Assembly (NCBI GenBank): GCA_050273025.1
Contig: CP158635.1
Location: 9,920,001-9,984,000, forward strand
Source: Cenococcum geophilum
Taxonomy: Eukaryota
Length of the DNA: 64,000 bases
Reading direction: 5' to 3'
The position numbers and the translations under genes are program-made. Of this stretch, positions 3,001 through 58,000 are shown piece by piece. The notes under the pieces were generated by a model. It did not search any database. It was not told the DNA's origin and was given only the letters and a program-made list of their open reading frames with translations. Within the stretch, counting starts at the first letter, position 1. Each line of letters opens with the position of its first letter.

Positions 3001-6000
3001 AACGAGAACTTTAACCACACCAGTTTTCTCATAAGCGCAGAGCCTGGCATCCGGATTCACTGCACACCTCACGCAATAAAATGTGCGGCGAACCTAGTCG
3101 ATATAATCAGCCCTAAGCACCCTGAGGAACTCCTAGATGTTTTCCAAGTTGACGTGATGTCTAAGATTCTAGATCTTCAGAAGCGGCGAGAAGGTAAAGG
3201 AAAGTCGAATGAAATCAGCCTGCGAATACCTTTTACTCATGTACGATTTGCCAATGAGTTCACCAAGAATTCTGGTGAGTCGGAGCTTGAGAAAGACCAA
3301 TATGATCTGATATTAGATCAGTTCAAAGTTGCTGCGCGAATAAAGGACTTTCAGGGCGAGCATGCTGGTGAAAACACCGTGTCGCTGCATTCTACTCTTG
3401 GCTCACTTAATATCTCTGTTAAGGAAAGATGTCTTGATTTACCTAATGAAGATGTAGCTGTTCAGGCCCAAGTGAACGATCTGCTGCTCTGGGTCTTGAA
3501 AGGCAAACACGCATCGGTAAACCTTTCTTTCAGGGCCTTTGAGGTTGCAACCGCAAGCAAGAAGGTGGAATATCTTGCTTCACTCATTCACCGTACCACT
3601 CGACTTGCACAAGAATTTGCTACAACGTTTGGAAACTTGAATGTTGAACAGCAAAGGCGCCTTCGCTTCCTAGCCTGGTTCTTGACCACATCCAAAGGCC
3701 AAAGCCCGGACCCAGCATTCTTGACGAGACCCTCATACGCCATACGCGCTGCCCGTGATCATCTCCGAAATCATGATTCCTGGAAGATCATATCTCGCTT
3801 CCGTTATATCTACCAGTGCTTGCCGGATGACCAGAAGTCAGAGCTCGGGCATTGTTGTCAGAAGAAGTTCACAAGTTGTCCGAGCGATGCTGAGGAACGA
3901 GTCATATCAATGTGGGATCAGTGGCGCACTTGGGATTTAGCACATGTCAAGAAGAGCTTGGCGATGCGAAGACTTTATGGCTCAATTGCTGGAATAGAGA
4001 AAATATCTCCAAAACCGATACCAGTCTATATTGACATCAAATCAGCGGGTATTAGATTGGTCGTCGACCCTGGACCGAAACAAAGTGAGGCCTCTATGCA
4101 AATTGTGGCGATCAATCTTATTATGCGCCCTCCGCCTAAGCCGACCGGTCTTATGCTTCTCGAGGCCGAGAAGCCGAAATCAACATTACTTCAGATCAAT
4201 TCTAAGAATAGTACTGTGCAGATCAGTTGGGAAATTTGCGAGCTTATTGAGTTCCTCATGAAAATGTTTCAAAATGTGATACCTGCGGAAGGCCTGGTTG
4301 CTGGGGGAGACGTTGAACCAACACCGCAACAAAAAATCCATCATACTGAAGAGCAGCCTGAAGACCACGATTTTCAGGTGATCTACGTAACTGAGCACGC
4401 TGAATTCGGTCTCGATAGTATAAATCTGAGGAGCGTCTCCATGGGCAGGGATCTACAACTGTCCCTTGTTAGATCCGACAAAACGGCTTTAGGAGAGGGT
4501 AACACCTTAAGCATATTGGTTCATGCTGATGCAGCAGCTACAAAATTGCTTTCAAGGTCCCGCCTGATGTTGGCCTCCAGATTGGATCAACCAAATCTCT
4601 CTTTCTCGCGATACGACAGCGGTGATGTTGGGAATTTATCTGAAGATTTCAAGATCGCAGGTGTGAGTAGGATGATTACTGTTGAAGTTAAAGAGGATGT
4701 ACTTGGTTTCCTTGAAGTCTTTGATTCTGTTCTGTGTGATGAGGTTGCCTATTTCCAACGCCAAGCTATCCTCTTCCAGGATTCCAGCAAACCAAGGCCT
4801 GTGGACTCAATCAACTCGGACAAGCGTTTCCCGAATATCACAGTCGCTTTGCTGATGGATTCCTACCTCATCGACATCACACTCTTGCAGTCCCTCACCT
4901 GGTCAATCTCTGGTGGGCCTGGTAGAGTCTCAGTTACTCCAGCTTTGGGACGGGAGACCACGCTGAACATTGATTTGGATCTTGAAAAACACTCACATAA
5001 AATGTACAGCAGTACAATTGATGGTTCAAACGTCATCGCTGCTCTGGAGCTGCCTCCTGTTAACGGTACGATAAGTGTAACACAGACCGAGAGGCAGACC
5101 ACCCTAAAAGCCTCGGTGATCGTTGATGCTATTACCTTTCAAGCTTCGGAAATACAAGGACTGGTCACTACTATCAACAAACCGGGGATGTCGAGCGTTT
5201 TCCATACTGCTCGGGATGACATTGAGATTATTAAAGGTCATTTTAGCGAGATCTTTCCCGATACGGCCCGGACTCCATCTATCGAGCTTCCCCCTGCGGC
5301 AAGGGATCTGATTTTCGGGATACACCTTACGCTTGCTGGCCTGAGCATTCTTGCCAGCGCCCCTGGACAGAAACCTGGATCTGCAACGGCCAATCTTGCC
5401 CTCAAACTGGCTTCCATTCAGATGAAGGCGACAAACATTTCTCCCAACGAAGATGGAATTCTACCTCTACCTGAAATTACTGCTCGCCTTCAGCAAATTA
5501 GCGTAGAAATGGTGTTATCTGACAAAGAAACTGTTCGTCACTGTGGAAATTTAACATTCGGTGCTTCTTTCCATGCAACTGCAGAAGATGGCTCACAATC
5601 TGCAAAGAGAGTTTATCGCATCCGCAGTCCAGGCCTAGAGGTTAACGTTTTTGCCGACACTGCATCCGCCGTTGTTGATGTGTTAAATCATCTTCAGGAT
5701 AAAATCAAAGATTTAGATCTTTCAAAAGAGAAGAAGTACCTTCGAAGACTTCGCCCTAAGAAAAGTCGCGCATCCAATAGAGACTCTAAGGTCGTTGCTG
5801 CAAGTGCGAGTGAAGAAGGTAGCGTCAACTCTAGTGCGCTTTTCACATCTGCTTATTCGCTCGAATTGCTGGATATTCAAATAAGCTGGATTGTTGGAAC
5901 TTCTATCACAACATATCTCGGCGTTGAGTCAGAAGATCTGGTGCTGTCTTTTCAACGAATCGACTTGTCGACAAAGAGAGACGATGCTGCTCGGTTAATG

Positions 6001-49200: not shown

Positions 49201-49949
49201 TAAAGATTTGCGTATTACCTATTCTATTTTAAATTTCGCTAATTAAGGGTAAAGGATATCTATTCTTCCTGGTAATATTGTTTAACTACCTATAGTTAAT
49301 ATACAGCCTTAGTTTGCCGTTTTTCTTTAATACGAACAGTACTGGATAACCCGCTAATAACTGCAATAGTCTAATGTATCCCTTTTATAAGTTTTCTTAG
49401 ATAAACTCTTTTAGTACTCTACCTTTCTCTTTAATAAGCTTATAGATTAAAAAGAACCTTAAACTTATTCCTAGTTCTAATACTATTTTATAGTCCTATA
49501 CTATATACTTTAACAGTTTCTCGCTTTCTAGTAACTATAGTTTCTTACTATACTTATGGTATCTCTTTAGTATATAACTTAGTCCTTTTTCCGTTTCTTT
49601 ATAGGTTGCTCCTACTTAGTACTATACTAACTTGGCTTATTGTTATATCTTACGCCGTTAAGTATCCCTAATATTAACTTAACCTATAATCCAATTAATC
49701 TTTAGATTGTATTTCTGTAACTAAGGCATTTCTAATACTGCTTTATTATTCCCTAATAGTAATATATTAAAAAACATCTTAATTTATCTCCCTTTAATGG
49801 TTAACTAAATAGGTCCTGTTTTAAGGTTAATAATACCTCCTTTATAGGCTATCGGATCTCCTAAAATTATTACTAATAGGTAAAAGTACTCCTTCTTCCT
49901 ATATGGTAACCCTATTCTTTTAACTGCTGCTAATAATATATAGTTTCTT

Positions 49950-50915
49950 CCTCGTAGGATTACGCCAGTAGGTATGTAAGACGGGAGTTGCGACCCCTGC
50001 AAATGGCAGCTTATGCCCATACCGGCGGAAACAATGAAGAAAGGCGTAAAACTAGAGGCTATGGAAGGCTCCCAAGCCGTGCGAGAGCGTACTAACTCTG
50101 GGAGGAAACTCTTATACAGACTGCTGGGGGGCGGACTGGTACTTAGGCTATCCCTATTATAAGATATCCGTAAGAACTGGTGAGAATCCCTATACGATTG
50201 GTGGTGGTAGCTAACTACTTATGGTTGGGACAAAGCACTAAAAAACTGAGGTAGAGGCCTGGATAAGCAGGCATGGGAAACTCTACTATATTATTAGTAC
50301 TACTAGTATATATAACTACCTAACTACCTAGCAGCCTGGACAACACCATACGGTTTTTCTGTCTCCTCTTAAGGAGTGGTGACCCTTGGCGAGGGCTTAG
50401 CAACTGGGGCCTAGGCGTAAAAGATACCCAGGCATACACACACGTCCCGCTCGCCTTTTGGTATAGTAGTAGTTTATAGATAAATTCCCCTTACGCCTTC
50501 GATAGGCCCTAGGGGGGGGAGGTATGGCGTATATAGCAATGGTCAAACAAGAGATAGCACACAGGGGATGGCCAAGATATGGGAAACAACAGTATAGCAA
50601 TTAATTGGCAAGGCCTAGCTGGGACGTAGTGAACCCTAGCTGGGATAAGCTAGAGAAGGAAGCAGTGGTTCCTAAGGAGTTCGAACATCTAAGGAGGACA
50701 GGACGTAGCCGTAGGCCCGCAGGGCCGCCGCTATGGACAAATATGGCAAACTGGGGTTTTTTATCCTACTAAGGTGGCTTATAGTGTTTTTCCTCCCCCA
50801 ACTATAGGGTTTTTCTTCCTGTAAATTATAAGTTTTTCCCCTGTAACGGAGTAGTCTGCGTGGGCCGCGTAGGATCTATATTAGACGTTAAGCAATGAAA
50901 TATTATTATTATTAT
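49950..50915 (+). mobile_element. 5'-truncated copy of the non-coding non-LTR retroposon
   Basis: 16-bp TSD TAATATATAGTTTCTT (49934-49949 / 50916-50931) and (ATT)n tail. Colinear with about 54090-55027. Confidence 0.88.
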
Positions 50916-51646
50916 TAATATATAGTTTCTTATTACTTTACTATCTATTAATACTTCGAACTATTAATCTTACCACTTAACTTATAAATTTAGGTGTTAT
51001 CCTTAAATTCCTTTAAGGGTCTAAGGCTCTACTACTAGTTCCCTTTAGTTTTATAGGCCTCTACTTTTCCTAATCATTAGCTACTTAATCCTATTTATAC
51101 TTAGTCCACTTTTAGCCAATACTTAGTTTGCTTTTTATCTTTAATATACTATAGATACGTGTTCTCTAGGCATTTCTACCACTATTATCCGTCTAGGCAT
51201 TCTTCTATAAGGAATCTTCTTAGCTAAAGTATTAAGTCCCTTTAGCTTTATACTTCTATAGGGTGCCAACTATATATATACTTAGCGTTTTAATATTTCG
51301 CCTTATCTGGTGCTTAATATATCCTTACTAGGTACTTCTAGTTCTTATCTTTAGGTACTCTATATATATTATACGCATTATCTATATATATAATCCATGC
51401 TAATATATAATATACTTAGTGTCTTAGGTTAACTCTTAACTTATCTTTATCCTTAAGTTTAAACCTTTCTTATGTTAATCTAAGTGTTATAACTTTATTT
51501 ATAGGTACTAAGATTTACCTCTTACTTCTCTAGTCCTCTAATTACTCCTTTAGATCTTTTAACGTTATAATTAAAGCTCCTTTAATATAACTTATAGCCT
51601 TTTCTATAATTAGGTGGTCTTGGATAACTTTTTTATCCAACTATAT

Positions 51647-52089
51647 TGTAAGAGTATATATATTAGGTCCCGCCGCGCTTGCGACAAGTTCGCAAGCACT
51701 CTTAGTCTTTTTGGCCGTATGGCGACGTGGAGGCGGGCCACGTTACAATTGTGCTTGCGAACTTACTGGGGCCAGGTATCGTGGGTTCGATCCCTATTAG
51801 TCACTTCGCTCTAGTATAGTCTAACGCGCATCCGTGCGATAAGGCGTCGGTGGAGATTCCGATTGCTTACGTTACTGGGGACTAACTAATATGGTGATAC
51901 TCTTGGCGATAATCCCTGTGGCCCGGAATGGGCGCATAGAGGAATCCCTGCGAGCGCTCGGGGACGAGCGCGCAGAGGAGAGGGCAATTGTAAGAGTATA
52001 TATATTAGGTCCCGCCGCGCTTGCGACAAGTTCGCAAGCACTCTTAGTCTTTTTGGCCGTATGGCGACGTGGAGGCGGGCCACGTTATA
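51647..52089 (+). mobile_element. TRIM (terminal-repeat retrotransposon in miniature), 443 bp
   Basis: 101-bp LTRs at 51647-51747 and 51989-52089, TSD TATAT, PPT AGAGGAGAGGGCAAT, 241-bp non-coding interior. Confidence 0.92.
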
Positions 52090-52691
52090 TATATATAGAA
52101 ATCTTCCCACTTGTCATTATATTGTTATCTATACTACTTTTAGTATAACTCCTTAAGTATATATGGCTTATCCGTAAGGAAGTATTTTCTTATTATTACG
52201 TTATAACAGCCTTTTATATATCGTCCTTTAAACCTAGTTAAAATCCCTAGATTCTCTTTTTATTCTAGTTTAGTAAGCCATTTAGCTCTTAGTATACCTA
52301 TTCTAGGCCTATTAGTAATTCTTCGTACTAGTATCCTATCCCTTATACGACCTAATATACTAAATCTCTTATCTAGTTTCTAATCTTGCTATAAGGTAAT
52401 TCTTACTCTAAATTCCTCTATAGTTTCTTTCTTTTTGCGTCTTATAAGTAGATTTTTAAAGTCTTCTTACTTCCTAATCTTATTAATAGTCCTTATTTAT
52501 ATATTAAAGTCTTAGTCCTATAGGATTCTCAATCCTAAGCTTACTTTTAACTTAAGCTTTACTCCTACCTTAGTCTAACTAGGCTTAGGTATTCTTGTCT
52601 CGTCTTAAGAGTTTTAAATCTTACTTATCTTATTTTAAGAATCTTATACCTATGGGAAACTCTATCCCAAGCTTATTTATATATCTTTAAA

Positions 52692-52776
52692 GCCCGCGAA
52701 GCCCTACTATACGCGTCCATGTCGCTGCGGGTGGAAACATCATTGGGAAATCATTCCTTATAATGGCTAAGTGCAG
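52692..52776 (+). ncRNA. HDV-like self-cleaving ribozyme (RIP-damaged) at the retroposon 5' end
   Basis: P1 GCCCGCG/TGCGGGT with G.U at position 1; P2 CTATAC/GTGCAG; P3 GCG/CGC; L3 TCCATGT; GG for P1.1; P4 hairpin 52735-52765; J4/2 GCTAA. Confidence 0.82.
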
Positions 52777-55027
52777 AGGTAATAGAGGAGAGCCGTCGCA
52801 GCGCGCGCAGCGCGCTGGTGTTGCGACTCTGTGGTGTTAAGCCTACGACGCGTATATCGCCCTTAATAACACTAGGAGTCCTACTGCCCCTGCTTAGAGC
52901 TCCTGCTATACCATCTAGGGGGGCTATTAAGGGAAACTGGGATACAAAAACCGCCTAACGTATAACTACCTGGCTCGCAGCCAGGCCCAAAACTAGCCTT
53001 ATTTAGCTAGTTAACGTAAACGCGCCCTAGGCGTACAATAGGACACCCTTAGGCTTACACTAGCTCTAAGACCAAAAGAATACGGCAAGGGCGTAGGGAA
53101 CCTCTTTTTATAAGAACTTGTTAAGGTTAACGCGTCGTAGATACTTCGTACAAAACTTATTAAGGCCTTAAGGCCACTATAAAGAACTTATTAAGGCCCT
53201 TCTATAAGGGCCTATCTAGTATCCAGTATACCTAGGTAACTTAAAAAAGGGTCTTAATAGGTGTAGTACGCGCAACCTAGATAATAGCGACGTAACTACG
53301 ATATAATAGCAACGTGACGGCGACTAGATGGCTTAACGAGGTAGAAACATAGGTAAAGCTCTAGGTAGCGGAAACATAGGCTAGCTTTAACGGCCCTATA
53401 GCGTACAACTTAGTCGACTTATAGTTAACCTATAGTTGACTTATAGGTGACTTATAGGAGGGTCTTAATAGGCGTAGTGTATGTAACCTAATGCGTATAT
53501 ATATAAGGCGACTTATAGGAGGGTTTTAATAGGCGTAGTATACGTAACCTAATGTATATATATAGGGGAGGCTATAGGGGAAACACAGGCTAGTTAAATA
53601 AGGTCTTAATAGTTAGAGATATAGGCTAGCTTATAAAAGGGGGGAACATAAGCTTAGTTAGTAGAAGAGGGAGGAGTAGGTTATTTGGTGCGGGACCTAG
53701 TGTCTCTACGGCCCCTCTTCTATAAGACACGGTCGGCCTATTATAAGGAGACTCTTATAGGCAACGCAAAACGGGAACCTCCTGCGGGGCGTAGTGTGTA
53801 GTAGCCACTGCTGGCTCTAAGGACCTTACCCCTTAGCTAGGCTCTAACCCTTAATACACCTAATAGGTAGGTAGGATTACGTCCTAGCTAAAGAGACTAC
53901 TACGTAGCTTAAGAGAACGGATGCGCGTGTTAGTATATTAATAGACGGAACCGTTTATCTCTAAGGCGGTATACTAGCGAGATATGCTTAAGGAGTAAAT
54001 AGGAGTTACTTAAGCAGGAAGGTTTTAGCTAGGCCTAACTATAGAAAGTGCGCCTAAGTCTGCATTATAGGATATAGCTATAACGCCTTTATAGGATTAC
54101 GCCAGTAGGTGCGTAAGACGGGAGTTATAACCCCTAGAAATGGCAGCTTATACCTATACCGGTAGAAATAATAAAAAAGGCATAAAACTAGAGGCTATAG
54201 AAGGCTCCTAAGCTATATAAAAGCGTATTAACTTTAAAAGGAGACTCTTATACAGACTGCTAGGGGGTAGACTAGTACTTAGGCTAATAACCCGTTATAA
54301 GATATCTAAAAGAATGGTGAAATTCCCTATATAAGTAGTGGTAGTAGCCAACTACTTATAGACTAGGACTAAAGCACTAAAAAACTAGAGTAGAGGCTTA
54401 GATAAGTAGGTATATTAAACTTTACTATATTGCTAGCTAATATATAACTACCTACCTAGATAACACTATATAGTTTTCCTATCTCCTCTTAAGGAGTGGT
54501 AACCCTTAGCGAGGGCCTAGCAACTAGGGCCTAGGCGTAAAAGATACCTAGGTATATATACACGTCCCACTTACCTTTTAGTATAGTAGTAGTTTATAAA
54601 TAAATCCCCCTTACGCCTTTAATAGGCCCTAGGGGGGGGGAGGTATAGTATATATAGTAATAGTTAAACAAGAGATAGTATATAGGGGATGGCTAAGATA
54701 TAGGAAACAATAGTATAGCAATTAATTAGTAAGGCCTAGCTAGGACGTAGTAAACCCTAGCTAGGATAAGCTAGAGAAGAAAGTAGTAGTTTCTAAGGAG
54801 TTCAAATATCTAAGAAGGATAGAATGTAGCTATAGGCCTATAGGGCCGCCGCTATAGACAAATATGGCAAACTGGGGTTTTTTATCCTACTAAGGTGGCT
54901 TATAGGGTTTTTCCTCCCCCAACTATAGGGTTTTTTTTCCTATAAATTATAAGTTTTTCCCCTATAACAGAGTAGTTTGCGTAGGCCGCGTAGGATCTAT
55001 ATTAGACGTTAAGCAATAAAATATTAT
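52692..55027 (+). mobile_element. Full-length non-autonomous non-LTR retroposon (about 2.3 kb, no recognisable ORF)
   Basis: 14-bp TSD TATATATCTTTAAA (52678-52691 / 55028-55041), 3' stem-loop followed by TAGACGTTAAGCAATAAA and an ATT-repeat tail, internal tandem repeats at 53410-53560. Confidence 0.85.
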
Positions 55028-58000
55028 TATATATCTTTAAACTAAGCTATTACCCTACTCTATCGGTTACTATCTATTGTAGGTCCTTAGGTATACCTTA
55101 TCTTATCTTAAAAATCTTAGTCGTCTTTTATCTTATTTTAAAAATCTTAAGCCTTTAGCCTTTTACCTTTATTAAGTAATAAAGTAGCGCTAGCAGTTAT
55201 CTACTCGCTTAATCTTTATAAAATATTCTTCCTTTTATCTTATAAAGCAATAGATACTATATTTAACGGTATTATAATTCCCGTTACTAAACCTTGCTCT
55301 ATAGTAGTCTTAGTCTCTACTTCTAATATAACTTCTTTAAGGTTTACACGCTCCTAGTAAGCTACCTTTATTGCCTTATTGTCTATAAATACTTCGCCTA
55401 TATTAAACTCGTTATCTTTAATATTCGATCTGCGTAATAGTTTATTAGTTCCCCTATATTTTAAGGATTTTGGCTTCTATAGCTAATAGCTTACGCCGTA
55501 CTTAGCGTCTTTATAAATTTAGTATATGTTATTATAACAGAACGCAAAACTTCTAATTAAACATTCCTTTATTCCTTATAGTATACTATTATCCCTCTAT
55601 ATATATATATCTTCTACTAGTCTAGTTCCCTTTATTACATAGTAACTCTAACTATCTTTATAATCCCTCGCAAAATAACCTTATTTCCCACAATTTATAT
55701 AAGCTCTATCTTTAAACTACTAACTTTACTATAGAGTCCGCCTAAACGTCTTTTATTACTAAAATCCCTGGTTTAGCCTCTACTCCTTAGTCCTATAATT
55801 ACTAAATCCTTAACCTCTAGGTTTTTATAGTTTCTTACTCTATCTCTTATAGGCTTCTTTAGTACCACTTAGGTCTATTAGCTTTACGCCATACTATAGT
55901 TTCTAATTTAGCTTTAGTCGTTGCGTACTTTACGCCTTATATAACTATAAAACTCTATCCTAGCCCCTCTTAGCCTATTCCCTTTAGTAGATCTAATTAT
56001 TATTTTTAATTACTTAATCTATTAATTCCTATAGGGTGTCCATATCTTCTATTAGGATAATTACGTCCTAGACTTTAGCCTTAAGTCCCTATTTATATTA
56101 TGCTATAAGCGCCTTATTATTCCACTTAACTTATATAGCTAGCGTCTGGAACTACGTAGTATACTTAATTACTAAGGTTCGTTGCATAATATCTTAGAGT
56201 TTTCTTTCCGCCGTAGTTACTACCTCTAGGTCTCCAAATATTTATATAAGTCGCTCTATAAACCCTTCCTAGCTTAAAAATATAAATTATACCTTCTAAT
56301 TAGTAGTCGTCATTCCATTTACCTATATTTCCGTAAGGTAAGGCTTAAACTACTTAAGTGCCCTTCCTAATAGGAATAGTCCCGCATATACTATTCGATC
56401 CATAGGTATTAGTAGCTTTACCCCTTTTTATATAACTTTAAAGTGCATTTACGTAAGAAACCCTTTAAGCTTTAATCTCTCTCTTAAGTATCTCTTAATT
56501 AATAGTAACTTGATCTTTACTGCTTCTATCCTATTAACCCTTTCTTTTAGCGCCGCATTATTTATTATTAATTGGTTAACTATCTCTTATAATTATCCGA
56601 CCGTTATAGGTTGCTATAAGTTAGTATTTACTATATTAGTATCACCTTCTAACCTTAAAGTAGTTGCCGCCGTTAATGGCGTTATGGTAGCTGCTTTTAG
56701 TAGCATATTATTTAACTTTTTATATTTAATACCGTAACTAGGTAGTAATTATATAACGGAACCTTATAGTAAGTACTACGATAGGCTTATTATTAGGCTA
56801 GGTATATAGGTAATATAAATTAAAGTTAATAACGTAATAATAACTAATAGAGTAGTTGCCTAACAGATTAACTCTAATTATATTCTAAGAATCACTATAA
56901 GGAAGGAACTATCTAGGTAGGGATTAAGGGTCCTTAAATACACAACCGGACTCCTATAAAATCCTTCTTATATATAATATATATATACTCTATCTACTTT
57001 ATTACAGATTGCACAGATCCTATAGATTATATAGATTACGTCACGTGACTTTAGTTACCATTCCTCGTTATATAGCTCTATCGGTTCCATCCTAGACCGT
57101 ACCTAGATTAACTAACTAGCTTCTTTCAACTCTTCCCTAAGTAGTTATAATATTATACTTAAAGCGTCCGTAACACCTAATAACTAAATCGCCGTATAGC
57201 TGAAATTAAAGTAAGTTTACTACCCCAACTTAATTAAATACGTATATAGGAAGAGATATAACTATATATAGAGATATCTAATATAATTAAGTAACTATAT
57301 TATTGCCTACCTAGTTCGGACGTATAATAACGTAATAGCTTAGTAATAACGTAATAGGAGGGGGGAGGAGGGGGAGGAGATTAGGGGTGGCTTAGCCACT
57401 ATAAGAAGGTCGTAATATTAGTATAGTATTAAACTTTAAAAATTATATCCTGAGAGCTTAATTAACAACCCCTATATAAAATGTTAATAATGTTTAATTA
57501 TAGAGCTTTAAACCGGTAGATCTCCTAGGAATGCCTATTATAAGTAGCTTTAAGTATAAAATCTAGAATATTTAGTAGTGGTATAAGTATAGGACGGGGG
57601 TATATATTTGCGTTCCTAAATATTATTATATAACGCAATTTTTAGGTAATAAAAACCGCCATTAATATTGCTTAACTAATACCTACCGGAGGTTCCTCTG
57701 TCCTTCCTATCTCCTCTCTTACCTATCTCCTTATTAGATACTATCTATATCGCTATATTAACTAATAGATCCCTTAGTAGAGACTAGGGAGGGGTATTAG
57801 AGCGCCTCTAGCTCTTATAAGGAAGAAGAAAGAAGAAGAGAGGAAGGTATAAAGGAGGGAGTATTTATAGACAGGAGGAGGCCCTACGAGTACGTAATTT
57901 GGTAAGTACTAATAGTATAAGATTCTTATATAAGATGGGCTTAATTGCTTACCAAAATATAGGGTGTCTTTATTATTATAGTGGCTACTATAGTAGTAGA

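Follow-up and report, generated by a model that had tools for sequence, protein, structure and literature searches.

The locus described here raises the question of how a 2.3-kb fungal element without an ORF came by an exact 5' end and by the means to move. The element lies in a stretch of 64,000 nt from Cenococcum geophilum (GCA_050273025.1, CP158635.1, positions 9,920,001-9,984,000, forward strand), which is called the window below and to which positions refer unless a locus is named. The original prediction, made from the letters of the window, saw at the head of the element a complete but RIP-mutated double pseudoknot of the HDV type whose first base would be the first base of the element. 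This observation on positions 52692-52780 is confirmed. Copies for comparison were drawn from metagenome loci and from contigs of sequencing runs. Taken together, we favor with a probability of roughly 85% the reading that a RIP-damaged HDV-like ribozyme stands at the head of a 1.75-kb leader which was joined to LINE lineages via template jumps of the RT. The features on which this reading is built are collected in Table 1.

Table 1. Features of the window element, its surroundings and two further candidate ribozymes (window positions unless a locus is given)
Feature	Position	Strand	Remarks
5' TSD	52677-52691	.	15 bp, TTATATATCTTTAAA; identical 15-mer at 55027-55041
3' TSD	55027-55041	.	15 bp, TTATATATCTTTAAA; identical 15-mer at 52677-52691
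TSD-bounded element	52692-55026	+	2335 bp
Non-coding leader, 1.75 kb	52692-54456	+	element positions 1-1765; ends ...ATATAACTACCTACC (consensus ...ACCTGCC)
LINE-derived 3' module, 570 nt	54457-55026	+	tail ...GACGTTAAGCAATAAAATATTA
Second copy, 5'-truncated, less RIP-mutated	49950-50915	+	84% identity to element positions 1401-2335 (BLAST)
HDV-like ribozyme, RIP-mutated copy	52692-52780	+	first 89 bases of the element
P1	52692-52698 / 52726-52732	+	7 pairs, G.U at both ends in the window copy
P2	52707-52712 / 52771-52776	+	CTATAC / GTGCAG; one A.C mismatch, one U.G wobble
P2, possible extension	52703-52705 / 52777-52779	+	
P3	52713-52715 / 52723-52725	+	GCG/CGC
L3	52716-52722	+	TCCATGT
P1.1	52717-52718 / 52733-52734	+	CC / GG
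P4 hairpin	52738-52765	+	
J4/2	52766-52770	+	GCTAA, putative catalytic C at 52767
Further HDV-like candidate	L009 1227-1317	-	motif match, other metagenome; same in L065
Further HDV-like candidate	L039 1973-2047	+	motif match, other metagenome

The element, its leader and the LINE partners

The element had been described as lacking an ORF, and in agreement with this no Pfam family was found in six frames of positions 49501-55502, with stops read as X. A tblastn search with P0001, the intact protein of a LINE relative, gave no match anywhere in the window. With neither RT and endonuclease domains nor a tblastn match, the window element is considered to be non-autonomous. The tail is of the LINE type, as had been proposed, since it is common to RT-encoding relatives: the last ~70 nt of the 3' module recur in L023, which carries an RT, and in L018, L031 and L070, in which 3' portions of the L023 body are present. 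The middle part of the module is common only to the second copy in the window and to L001. This second copy has an (ATT)n tail and a 16-bp TSD of its own (TAATATATAGTTTCTT, at 49934-49949 and 50916-50931). Because the two copies possess the same junction but different TSDs, it was concluded that this very chimera was transcribed and retrotransposed. The window chimera has been retrotransposed at least twice, with LINE machinery provided in trans.

The description of the element as an ORF-less unit of 2.3 kb, headed by the ribozyme and ending in a LINE tail, therefore stands, but the element is not a stand-alone family, because its 1.75-kb leader also stands at the head of LINE copies that encode an RT and of dozens of chimeras composed of the leader and a LINE fragment. 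Most of the related loci align to the window element over positions 1-1765 only, and in most of the long metagenome loci the first ~1.7 kb align to the leader at 73-90%. Many related loci differ in length by 50-100 nt around leader positions 720-820, and the leader of the window copy contains two internal repeats of 35 nt (53233-53267 and 53444-53478, 86% identity).

The leader itself was searched for coding and structural content. An ORF1 hidden in it was rejected, as in the consensus of 30 copies, derived by majority or by deRIP, the longest sense ORF comprises 128 aa, compared with 143 aa in the antisense direction. The search for tRNA-like and other known RNAs at the 3' end of the leader was negative as well: in the E-value mode of Rfam the leader of L042 yielded only an HDV model and weak miRNA noise, and ARAGORN predicted no tRNA genes in four loci.

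The bodies to which the leader is attached encode what the window element lacks. RVT_1 was identified in all four of the long TSD-bounded units tested (with stops read as X, E-values of 2e-18 for L023, 5e-15 for L016, 6e-12 for L063 and 1e-4 for L008), and Exo_endo_phos_2 in three of the four. The reading frame of L016 extends over 1,151 codons and is continuous apart from stops; it is related to intact APE+RT proteins of 1,090-1,180 aa, with 35-43% identity, and the LINEs have a single ORF of ~1,120 aa that encodes APE+RT. When the lineages represented by L023, by L016/L008 and by L063/L044 are compared, the leader is 75-90% identical across lineages whereas the bodies are ~65% identical or cannot be aligned. 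Judged by these sequences, decayed LINEs with APE+RT from at least three lineages have the leader at their head.

The end of the leader is constant, ...AACTCTACT..ATATAACTACCTGCC, and the sequence after it varies. In 41 loci, 44 leader-end junctions were recorded, and sorted by their right-hand sequences they make up 32 groups, including 23 singletons; in the nine groups with several members the offsets mostly differ, offset 0 being found only for the pairs L013/L042 and L063/L079. L018, L070 and L031 join the L023 sequence at positions 4759, 4171 and 2992, respectively, and L016, aligned to P0001, lacks the start of the ORF, approximately 33 codons. Inspection of the junction sequences by eye places the joint of L015 inside the RT motif and the start of L023 near ORF codon 5. 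In L008, ~820 nt separate the leader end from the LINE ORF, a stretch that is read here as the putative 5' UTR of the LINE itself. The leader may also be followed by a leader: in L001 and L079 its end is joined to an internal position (~584 or ~165) of a second leader, which suggests leader-to-leader jumps, and L082 and L041 have, by eye, a sequence resembling the leader end directly before ribozyme position ~14-17. No solo leader was seen among the related loci. Splicing was rejected as an explanation for the constant end of the leader, as none of the three right-hand junctions that were mapped is preceded by AG. In L032 a tandem unit of ~34 nt (…CTATAACTATCTACCGCAGGGCAGACGACCTCCT…) directly follows the leader end, ~1840-2000 nt downstream of G1, and the element of L034 is interrupted 134 nt from G1 by an insert with frames of 700 aa, on the opposite strand, and 308 aa.

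A fixed left end combined with variable right ends inside one pair of TSDs is the signature of template switching by RT onto the 3' end of another RNA. An alternative that we regard as unlikely takes the leader to be a 5' UTR native to a single LINE family and the ORF-less elements to be internal deletions, created at the DNA level or by recombination. It would account for the presence of the leader and APE+RT within one TSD-bounded unit in the long elements, and internal deletion is the explanation offered for the R2 SIDEs in PMC3414825. However, random deletions should vary on both sides, whereas the left breakpoint is the same in the 44 junctions and the right partners form 32 staggered groups. 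A native UTR is also difficult to reconcile with the presumed second UTR in L008, with the missing ORF start of L016 and apparently also of L023, and with a leader that is more conserved across lineages than the bodies it precedes.

In the favored reading, in which the RT jumps between templates, the ribozyme of the leader would cut 5' of G1 and would free the RNA from any upstream read-through transcript. The RT of a LINE would start at the LINE 3' tail and copy the RNA to its end, and the insertions created in this way would begin at G1. An RT that reaches the 5' end of a LINE template and jumps onto leader RNA would be the likeliest cause of the chimeras; the fixed 3' end of the leader, ...ACCUGCC, would then be joined to full-length or 5'-truncated LINE bodies or to the leader itself. 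Of this reading, the fold with its conservation, the 5' boundary, the TSDs and tails, the chimeric junctions and the RT/APE of relatives are shown; catalysis, transcription by read-through, template switching and the origin of the leader's 3' end are inferences. A more far-reaching proposal is offered tentatively, as a possibility with somewhat less than even odds: the leader may be a self-perpetuating, ribozyme-capped non-coding RNA that persists solely through re-attachment to LINE RNAs by template switching at ...CCUGCC and lets each new chimera recover, independently of a promoter, a precise 5' end out of read-through transcripts. Such a modular head, serving several lineages, would explain mechanistically the RNAs of the WEIRD type in fungal MINE chimeras (see below).

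The 5' boundary and its surroundings

G1 of the fold, G52692, directly follows the TSD, as the original prediction had stated. Sixteen contigs of X1 contain the 5' flank up to 52691 and continue with the sequence 3' of the 3' TSD. They represent empty sites, and since their 5' flank ends at 52691 they fix the boundary of the insertion. The exact 5' end is upheld beyond the window copy: in 108 of the 108 usable copies, those with at least 30 nt of flank, similarity breaks at -1/+1, so that all of them start at G1. Mean pairwise identity in these copies is 0.32 in the 30 nt upstream of G1 and 0.97 in the first 30 nt, and 103 of the copies carry G at the first position, four carry A and one carries T. 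Left out of the 108 were L041 and L082, whose 5' ends are rearranged, three loci outside the family and a locus whose flank is short.

Exact TSDs of 12-20 bp adjoin G1 in 14 of the 61 loci with enough flank; in a further three only 9 bp are repeated and in 44 no TSD was found. The TSD-bounded units measure 2156, 2305, 2628, 2884, 2951, 3617, 3857, 4023, 4362, 4828, 5358, 5430, 5725 and 6029 bp, and their tails are of several types, in each of which a short motif precedes repeats of trinucleotides or similar units. The flanks of the 108 copies are AT-rich with a T/A bias at -15 to -11 (A in 67 of 108 at -13), which is consistent with a preference for AT-rich nick sites and with TSDs of 14-15 bp.

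The DNA around the window element has features of its own. The insertion target (52400-52690 and 55042-55300) is a repeat of very high copy number, copies of which without the insertion exist; the summed depth of X1 contigs is 388,000-930,000 in the flanking repeat versus 24,000-231,000 inside the element. Positions 1-38000 of the window have a GC content of 0.46-0.52 and normal dinucleotide ratios, and positions 39000-64000 form an AT-rich block of the RIP type (GC 0.28-0.41, TpA/ApT 1.5-2.0, (CA+TG)/(AC+GT) 0.27-0.67). A perfect direct repeat of 101 nt (51645-51745 and 51987-52087, 342 nt apart) lies in heavily RIP-mutated DNA; a relatively GC-rich translated stretch that is present twice lies in this region.

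Transcription start sites usually scatter by a few nucleotides, and this counts against a second alternative, which appears quite unlikely to us: that the boundary at G1 is the TSS of an internal promoter of the leader and that the fold serves RNA stability, translation or protein binding, or that promoter and ribozyme act together. The position of the predicted cleavage site of the fold, exactly at the junction in 108 of 108 copies, speaks against it as well. It draws its plausibility from L1Tc, for which an internal promoter and an HDV-like ribozyme within the first 77 nt are described (PMC3185411), and from the report that HDV-like ribozymes of retrotransposons promote translation (PMC6765202).

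The aligned RNA reads showed no accumulation of 5' ends at G1, a point against the favored reading. In the X21 data (organism B) 3,539 reads aligned and covered the leader and the 3' module; nearly all of them show less than 95% identity and therefore come from other copies. The first mate maps mostly to the minus strand (755.9 versus 19.4 in the bin 54534-54630). An identical contig of 151 nt from an RNA library (X18, depth 3) spans the cleavage site and represents either an uncleaved transcript of the damaged copy or DNA carry-over.

The ribozyme fold and its variants

The coordinates predicted for P1, P2, P3, P1.1, P4 and J4/2 agree base for base with the sequence, and the pair at the cleavage site of the window copy is G52692.U52732. 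With changes in P2, L3 and P1, the window copy may be inactive. Nested-only MFE folding gave structures that were no better than those of shuffled sequences, neither for the window copy (z +1.18) nor for an unmutated copy (z -1.09). Such insignificant z-scores are expected, because the fold is a double pseudoknot and the folding was restricted to nested pairs.

At gathering thresholds, Rfam returned no match anywhere in the window. In the E-value mode, applied to 301 nt, the window copy matched drz-agam-2-2 with 18.6 bits (gathering 38, E 0.0069), the letters common to both being CGUCC..GUCG, UGG.AACAU and AUGGCUAA. The unmutated copy L013 scored 31.8 bits with HDV-F-prausnitzii (gathering 44, E 2.3e-4), 28.3 bits with HDV_ribozyme (gathering 50, E 0.023) and 16.2 bits with drz-agam-2-2 (gathering 38). 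For these two copies the gathering score was reached by no Rfam HDV model; three HDV-like models match L013 in register. The alignments of L013 to HDV-F-prausnitzii and HDV_ribozyme are in register with G1 and place P1 of the model on GCCCGCG, and GGCUAA of L013 is aligned to the J4/2 consensus of both models.

A core search motif of 25 fixed bases was derived from the window sequence and its Rfam match. It occurs once in the window and in none of 100 shuffled windows; it is absent from 596 Gb of prokaryote genomes and from viral contigs. Metagenome contigs contain it at 114 loci, 111 of which form one family with the window copy. Including the latter, the family comprises 112 copies with 79 distinct ribozyme sequences. 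The 25 motif positions are invariant because they were fixed by the search, an ascertainment that does not extend to positions 1-22, 34-40 and 80-89, which are free of the motif and are 90-100% conserved in the family. Contigs of two DNA sequencing runs, searched at 80% likeness, likewise reveal a multi-copy family. Among the 40 of 703 differences listed for the aligned reads none lies inside 52692-52790, and the variation of the ribozyme was therefore taken from the metagenome loci.

The defects in the core of the window copy had been attributed to RIP, with CTATAC derived from CTGCAC in P2 and TCCATGT probably derived from TCCACGT in L3. The family bears this out, as its consensus has both of the predicted letter strings: P2 is CTGCAC (G18 in 100 and C19 in 102 of 109), L3 is TCCACGT (C29 in 102 of 109), and the closing pair of P1 is G7-C. 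Where the contigs depart from the window copy, the change is mostly A>G or T>C (174 and 154 of 529 places in X1), which identifies the window copy as the mutated one.

Pairing was followed through the family in alignment A1 (MAFFT, 81 distinct sequences). The pseudoknotted structure is paired in 95.7% of 2491 cells, as opposed to 37-54% when the partners are slid against each other, and nine pairs have changed on both sides, a number reached by none of 500 shuffles. In L050, L063 and L069, P4 has a double change from GGAA/TTCC to GTAA/TTAC. The variation within the family consists mostly of RIP transitions, and covariation at this level is therefore weak to modest evidence. The pair at the cleavage site, at the base of P1, is GU in 74, AU in 5 and another combination in 1 of the 80 cells with letters. 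P1.1 is CC/GG in 81 of 81 sequences, at positions that are fixed by the search motif.

Stronger evidence comes from the two further sequence types, L009 and L039, which are the only ones available for covariation across types. Since both were misaligned in A1, pairing across the types was checked by script and by eye. P1 forms seven of seven pairs in each type, with GCCCGCG/CGCGGGT in the family, GGAAGTC/GACTTCT in L009 and GGACCCA/TGGGTCT in L039. P3 forms three of three pairs in all of them, as ACG/CGT in L009 and L039. P2 is CTGCAC/GTGCAG in the family, as determined by the script, which covered offsets 0 and 1 only, and GGTATC/GATACC in L009 and AGAAC/GTTCT in L039, both determined by eye. 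The covariation of stems, which the original prediction proposed as a check, is found here, with P1 and P2 compensating across two unrelated types that have entirely different letters. L009 and L039 had no HDV match in the E-value mode of Rfam up to E 1. The ribozyme sequence of L009 is identical to that of L065, and downstream of the latter no informative ORF was found.

The fold, the three Rfam HDV models in register and the compensating P1 and P2 of independent types uphold the identification as an HDV-like ribozyme. That an 89-nt stretch of a repeat can merely by chance be drawn as an HDV-like fold, with no catalytic history, is very improbable: the missed gathering scores and the insignificant MFE z-scores would fit it, but the register shared by three models, the absence of the motif from prokaryote and viral DNA, the compensation in two unrelated types and the 97% conservation of the first 30 nt in copies heavily mutated by RIP all speak against it.

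Relation to known elements

R2, R4, L1Tc, RTE and Baggins elements are established carriers of HDV-like ribozymes at their 5' ends (PMC6765202, PMC3774820, PMC3185411). According to these reports, R2, RTE/drz-Agam-2, Baggins and L1Tc carry the same nested double pseudoknot at their first bases and are cleaved at the 5' junction, as is predicted here. The TSDs and LINE tails reported for the R2/RTE/L1Tc type are likewise present in the elements studied here, and J4/2 GGCUAA and the letters of L3 in drz-agam-2-2 and the HDV models match the present ribozyme. As the type is portrayed in these sources, however, the ribozyme belongs to one element, whereas here the host is a fungus and the leader appears to be exchanged among LINE lineages. 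Elements of the R2/RTE/L1Tc type encode RT and endonuclease; the window element is without both, and of its relatives the four long units named above have the former and three of them also the latter.

The R2 SIDEs are described as ORF-less elements with the R2 ribozyme and the 3' end of R2 or R1, and template jumps are described for R2 (PMC3414825, Eickbush & Eickbush 2012). In the account of PMC3414825 they resemble the window element in their 5' HDV-like ribozyme, LINE 3' end, lack of an ORF and mobilization in trans, and the R2/R1 hybrid SIDEs join the ribozyme of one element to the 3' end of another. They differ in that SIDEs, as presented there, are specific to rDNA, short and formed by internal deletion, whereas the present elements are dispersed in AT-rich DNA and have a 5' module of 1.75 kb. 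The junctions, with their fixed left and variable right sides, point to template switching rather than to an internal deletion of the SIDE type.

The architecture agrees with that of MINE of Magnaporthe, in which a full-length 1.1-kb non-coding RNA, WEIRD, is joined to the 5'-truncated LINE MGL at 28 sites (PMC2104539, Gogvadze et al. 2007). PMC2104539 reports no solo WEIRD and GCC at the switching sites. MINE and the present chimeras have in common a non-coding 5' RNA of ~1 kb or more whose 3' end is joined to LINE fragments of many lengths. As described in that paper, MINE is flanked by repeats of 10-20 bp, has no solo 5' RNA and switches at GCC, and the leader studied here also ends in GCC. 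The combination of a fixed leader end and variable LINE 3' fragments within one TSD pair was found here in units of 2156-6029 bp. The passages on WEIRD in PMC2104539 describe no ribozyme, and here, in a further difference, the partners of the leader come from at least three LINE lineages. This comparison between WEIRD and the present leader is one of architecture.

The elements link three separate literatures, on ribozymes at the LINE 5' ends of animals and trypanosomes, on fungal HDV-class ribozymes and on fungal LINE chimeras with a non-coding 5' RNA. Fungal HDV-class ribozymes are abundant and their role is unknown, and the 5' RNA of the chimeras has been unexplained so far. If the leader reading is true, the ribozyme would explain the exact 5' ends of promoter-less fungal retroposons, and template switching would carry a 1.75-kb RNA module from one LINE lineage to another. 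More than 100 natural variants of the ribozyme, RIP-damaged ones included, are at hand for structure-function work. A full-text search, with most subscription journals outside its coverage, yielded no paper that links HDV-like ribozymes with fungal non-LTR elements or with MINE/WEIRD.

That HDV-type ribozymes as such occur in fungi is already known: 230 variants from 26 species have been reported, with cleavage shown for two (PMC5640933, Li & Breaker 2017). Retrotransposons are not mentioned in the main text of PMC5640933. The ribozymes reported there and those studied here are alike in belonging to the HDV class and in occurring in many copies per fungal genome. According to PMC5640933, the variant of Li and Breaker is cleaved at a C-G pair, its P4 contains a loop E, and P2 is separated from P3 by an additional nucleotide; the present family, with G.U at the cleavage site and no nucleotide between P2 and P3, is set apart from it by that description. 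Members of the family may already be among the 230 sequences. In L009 and L039 a single extra C separates P2 from P3, a feature in which they are like the published fungal variant (PMC5640933).
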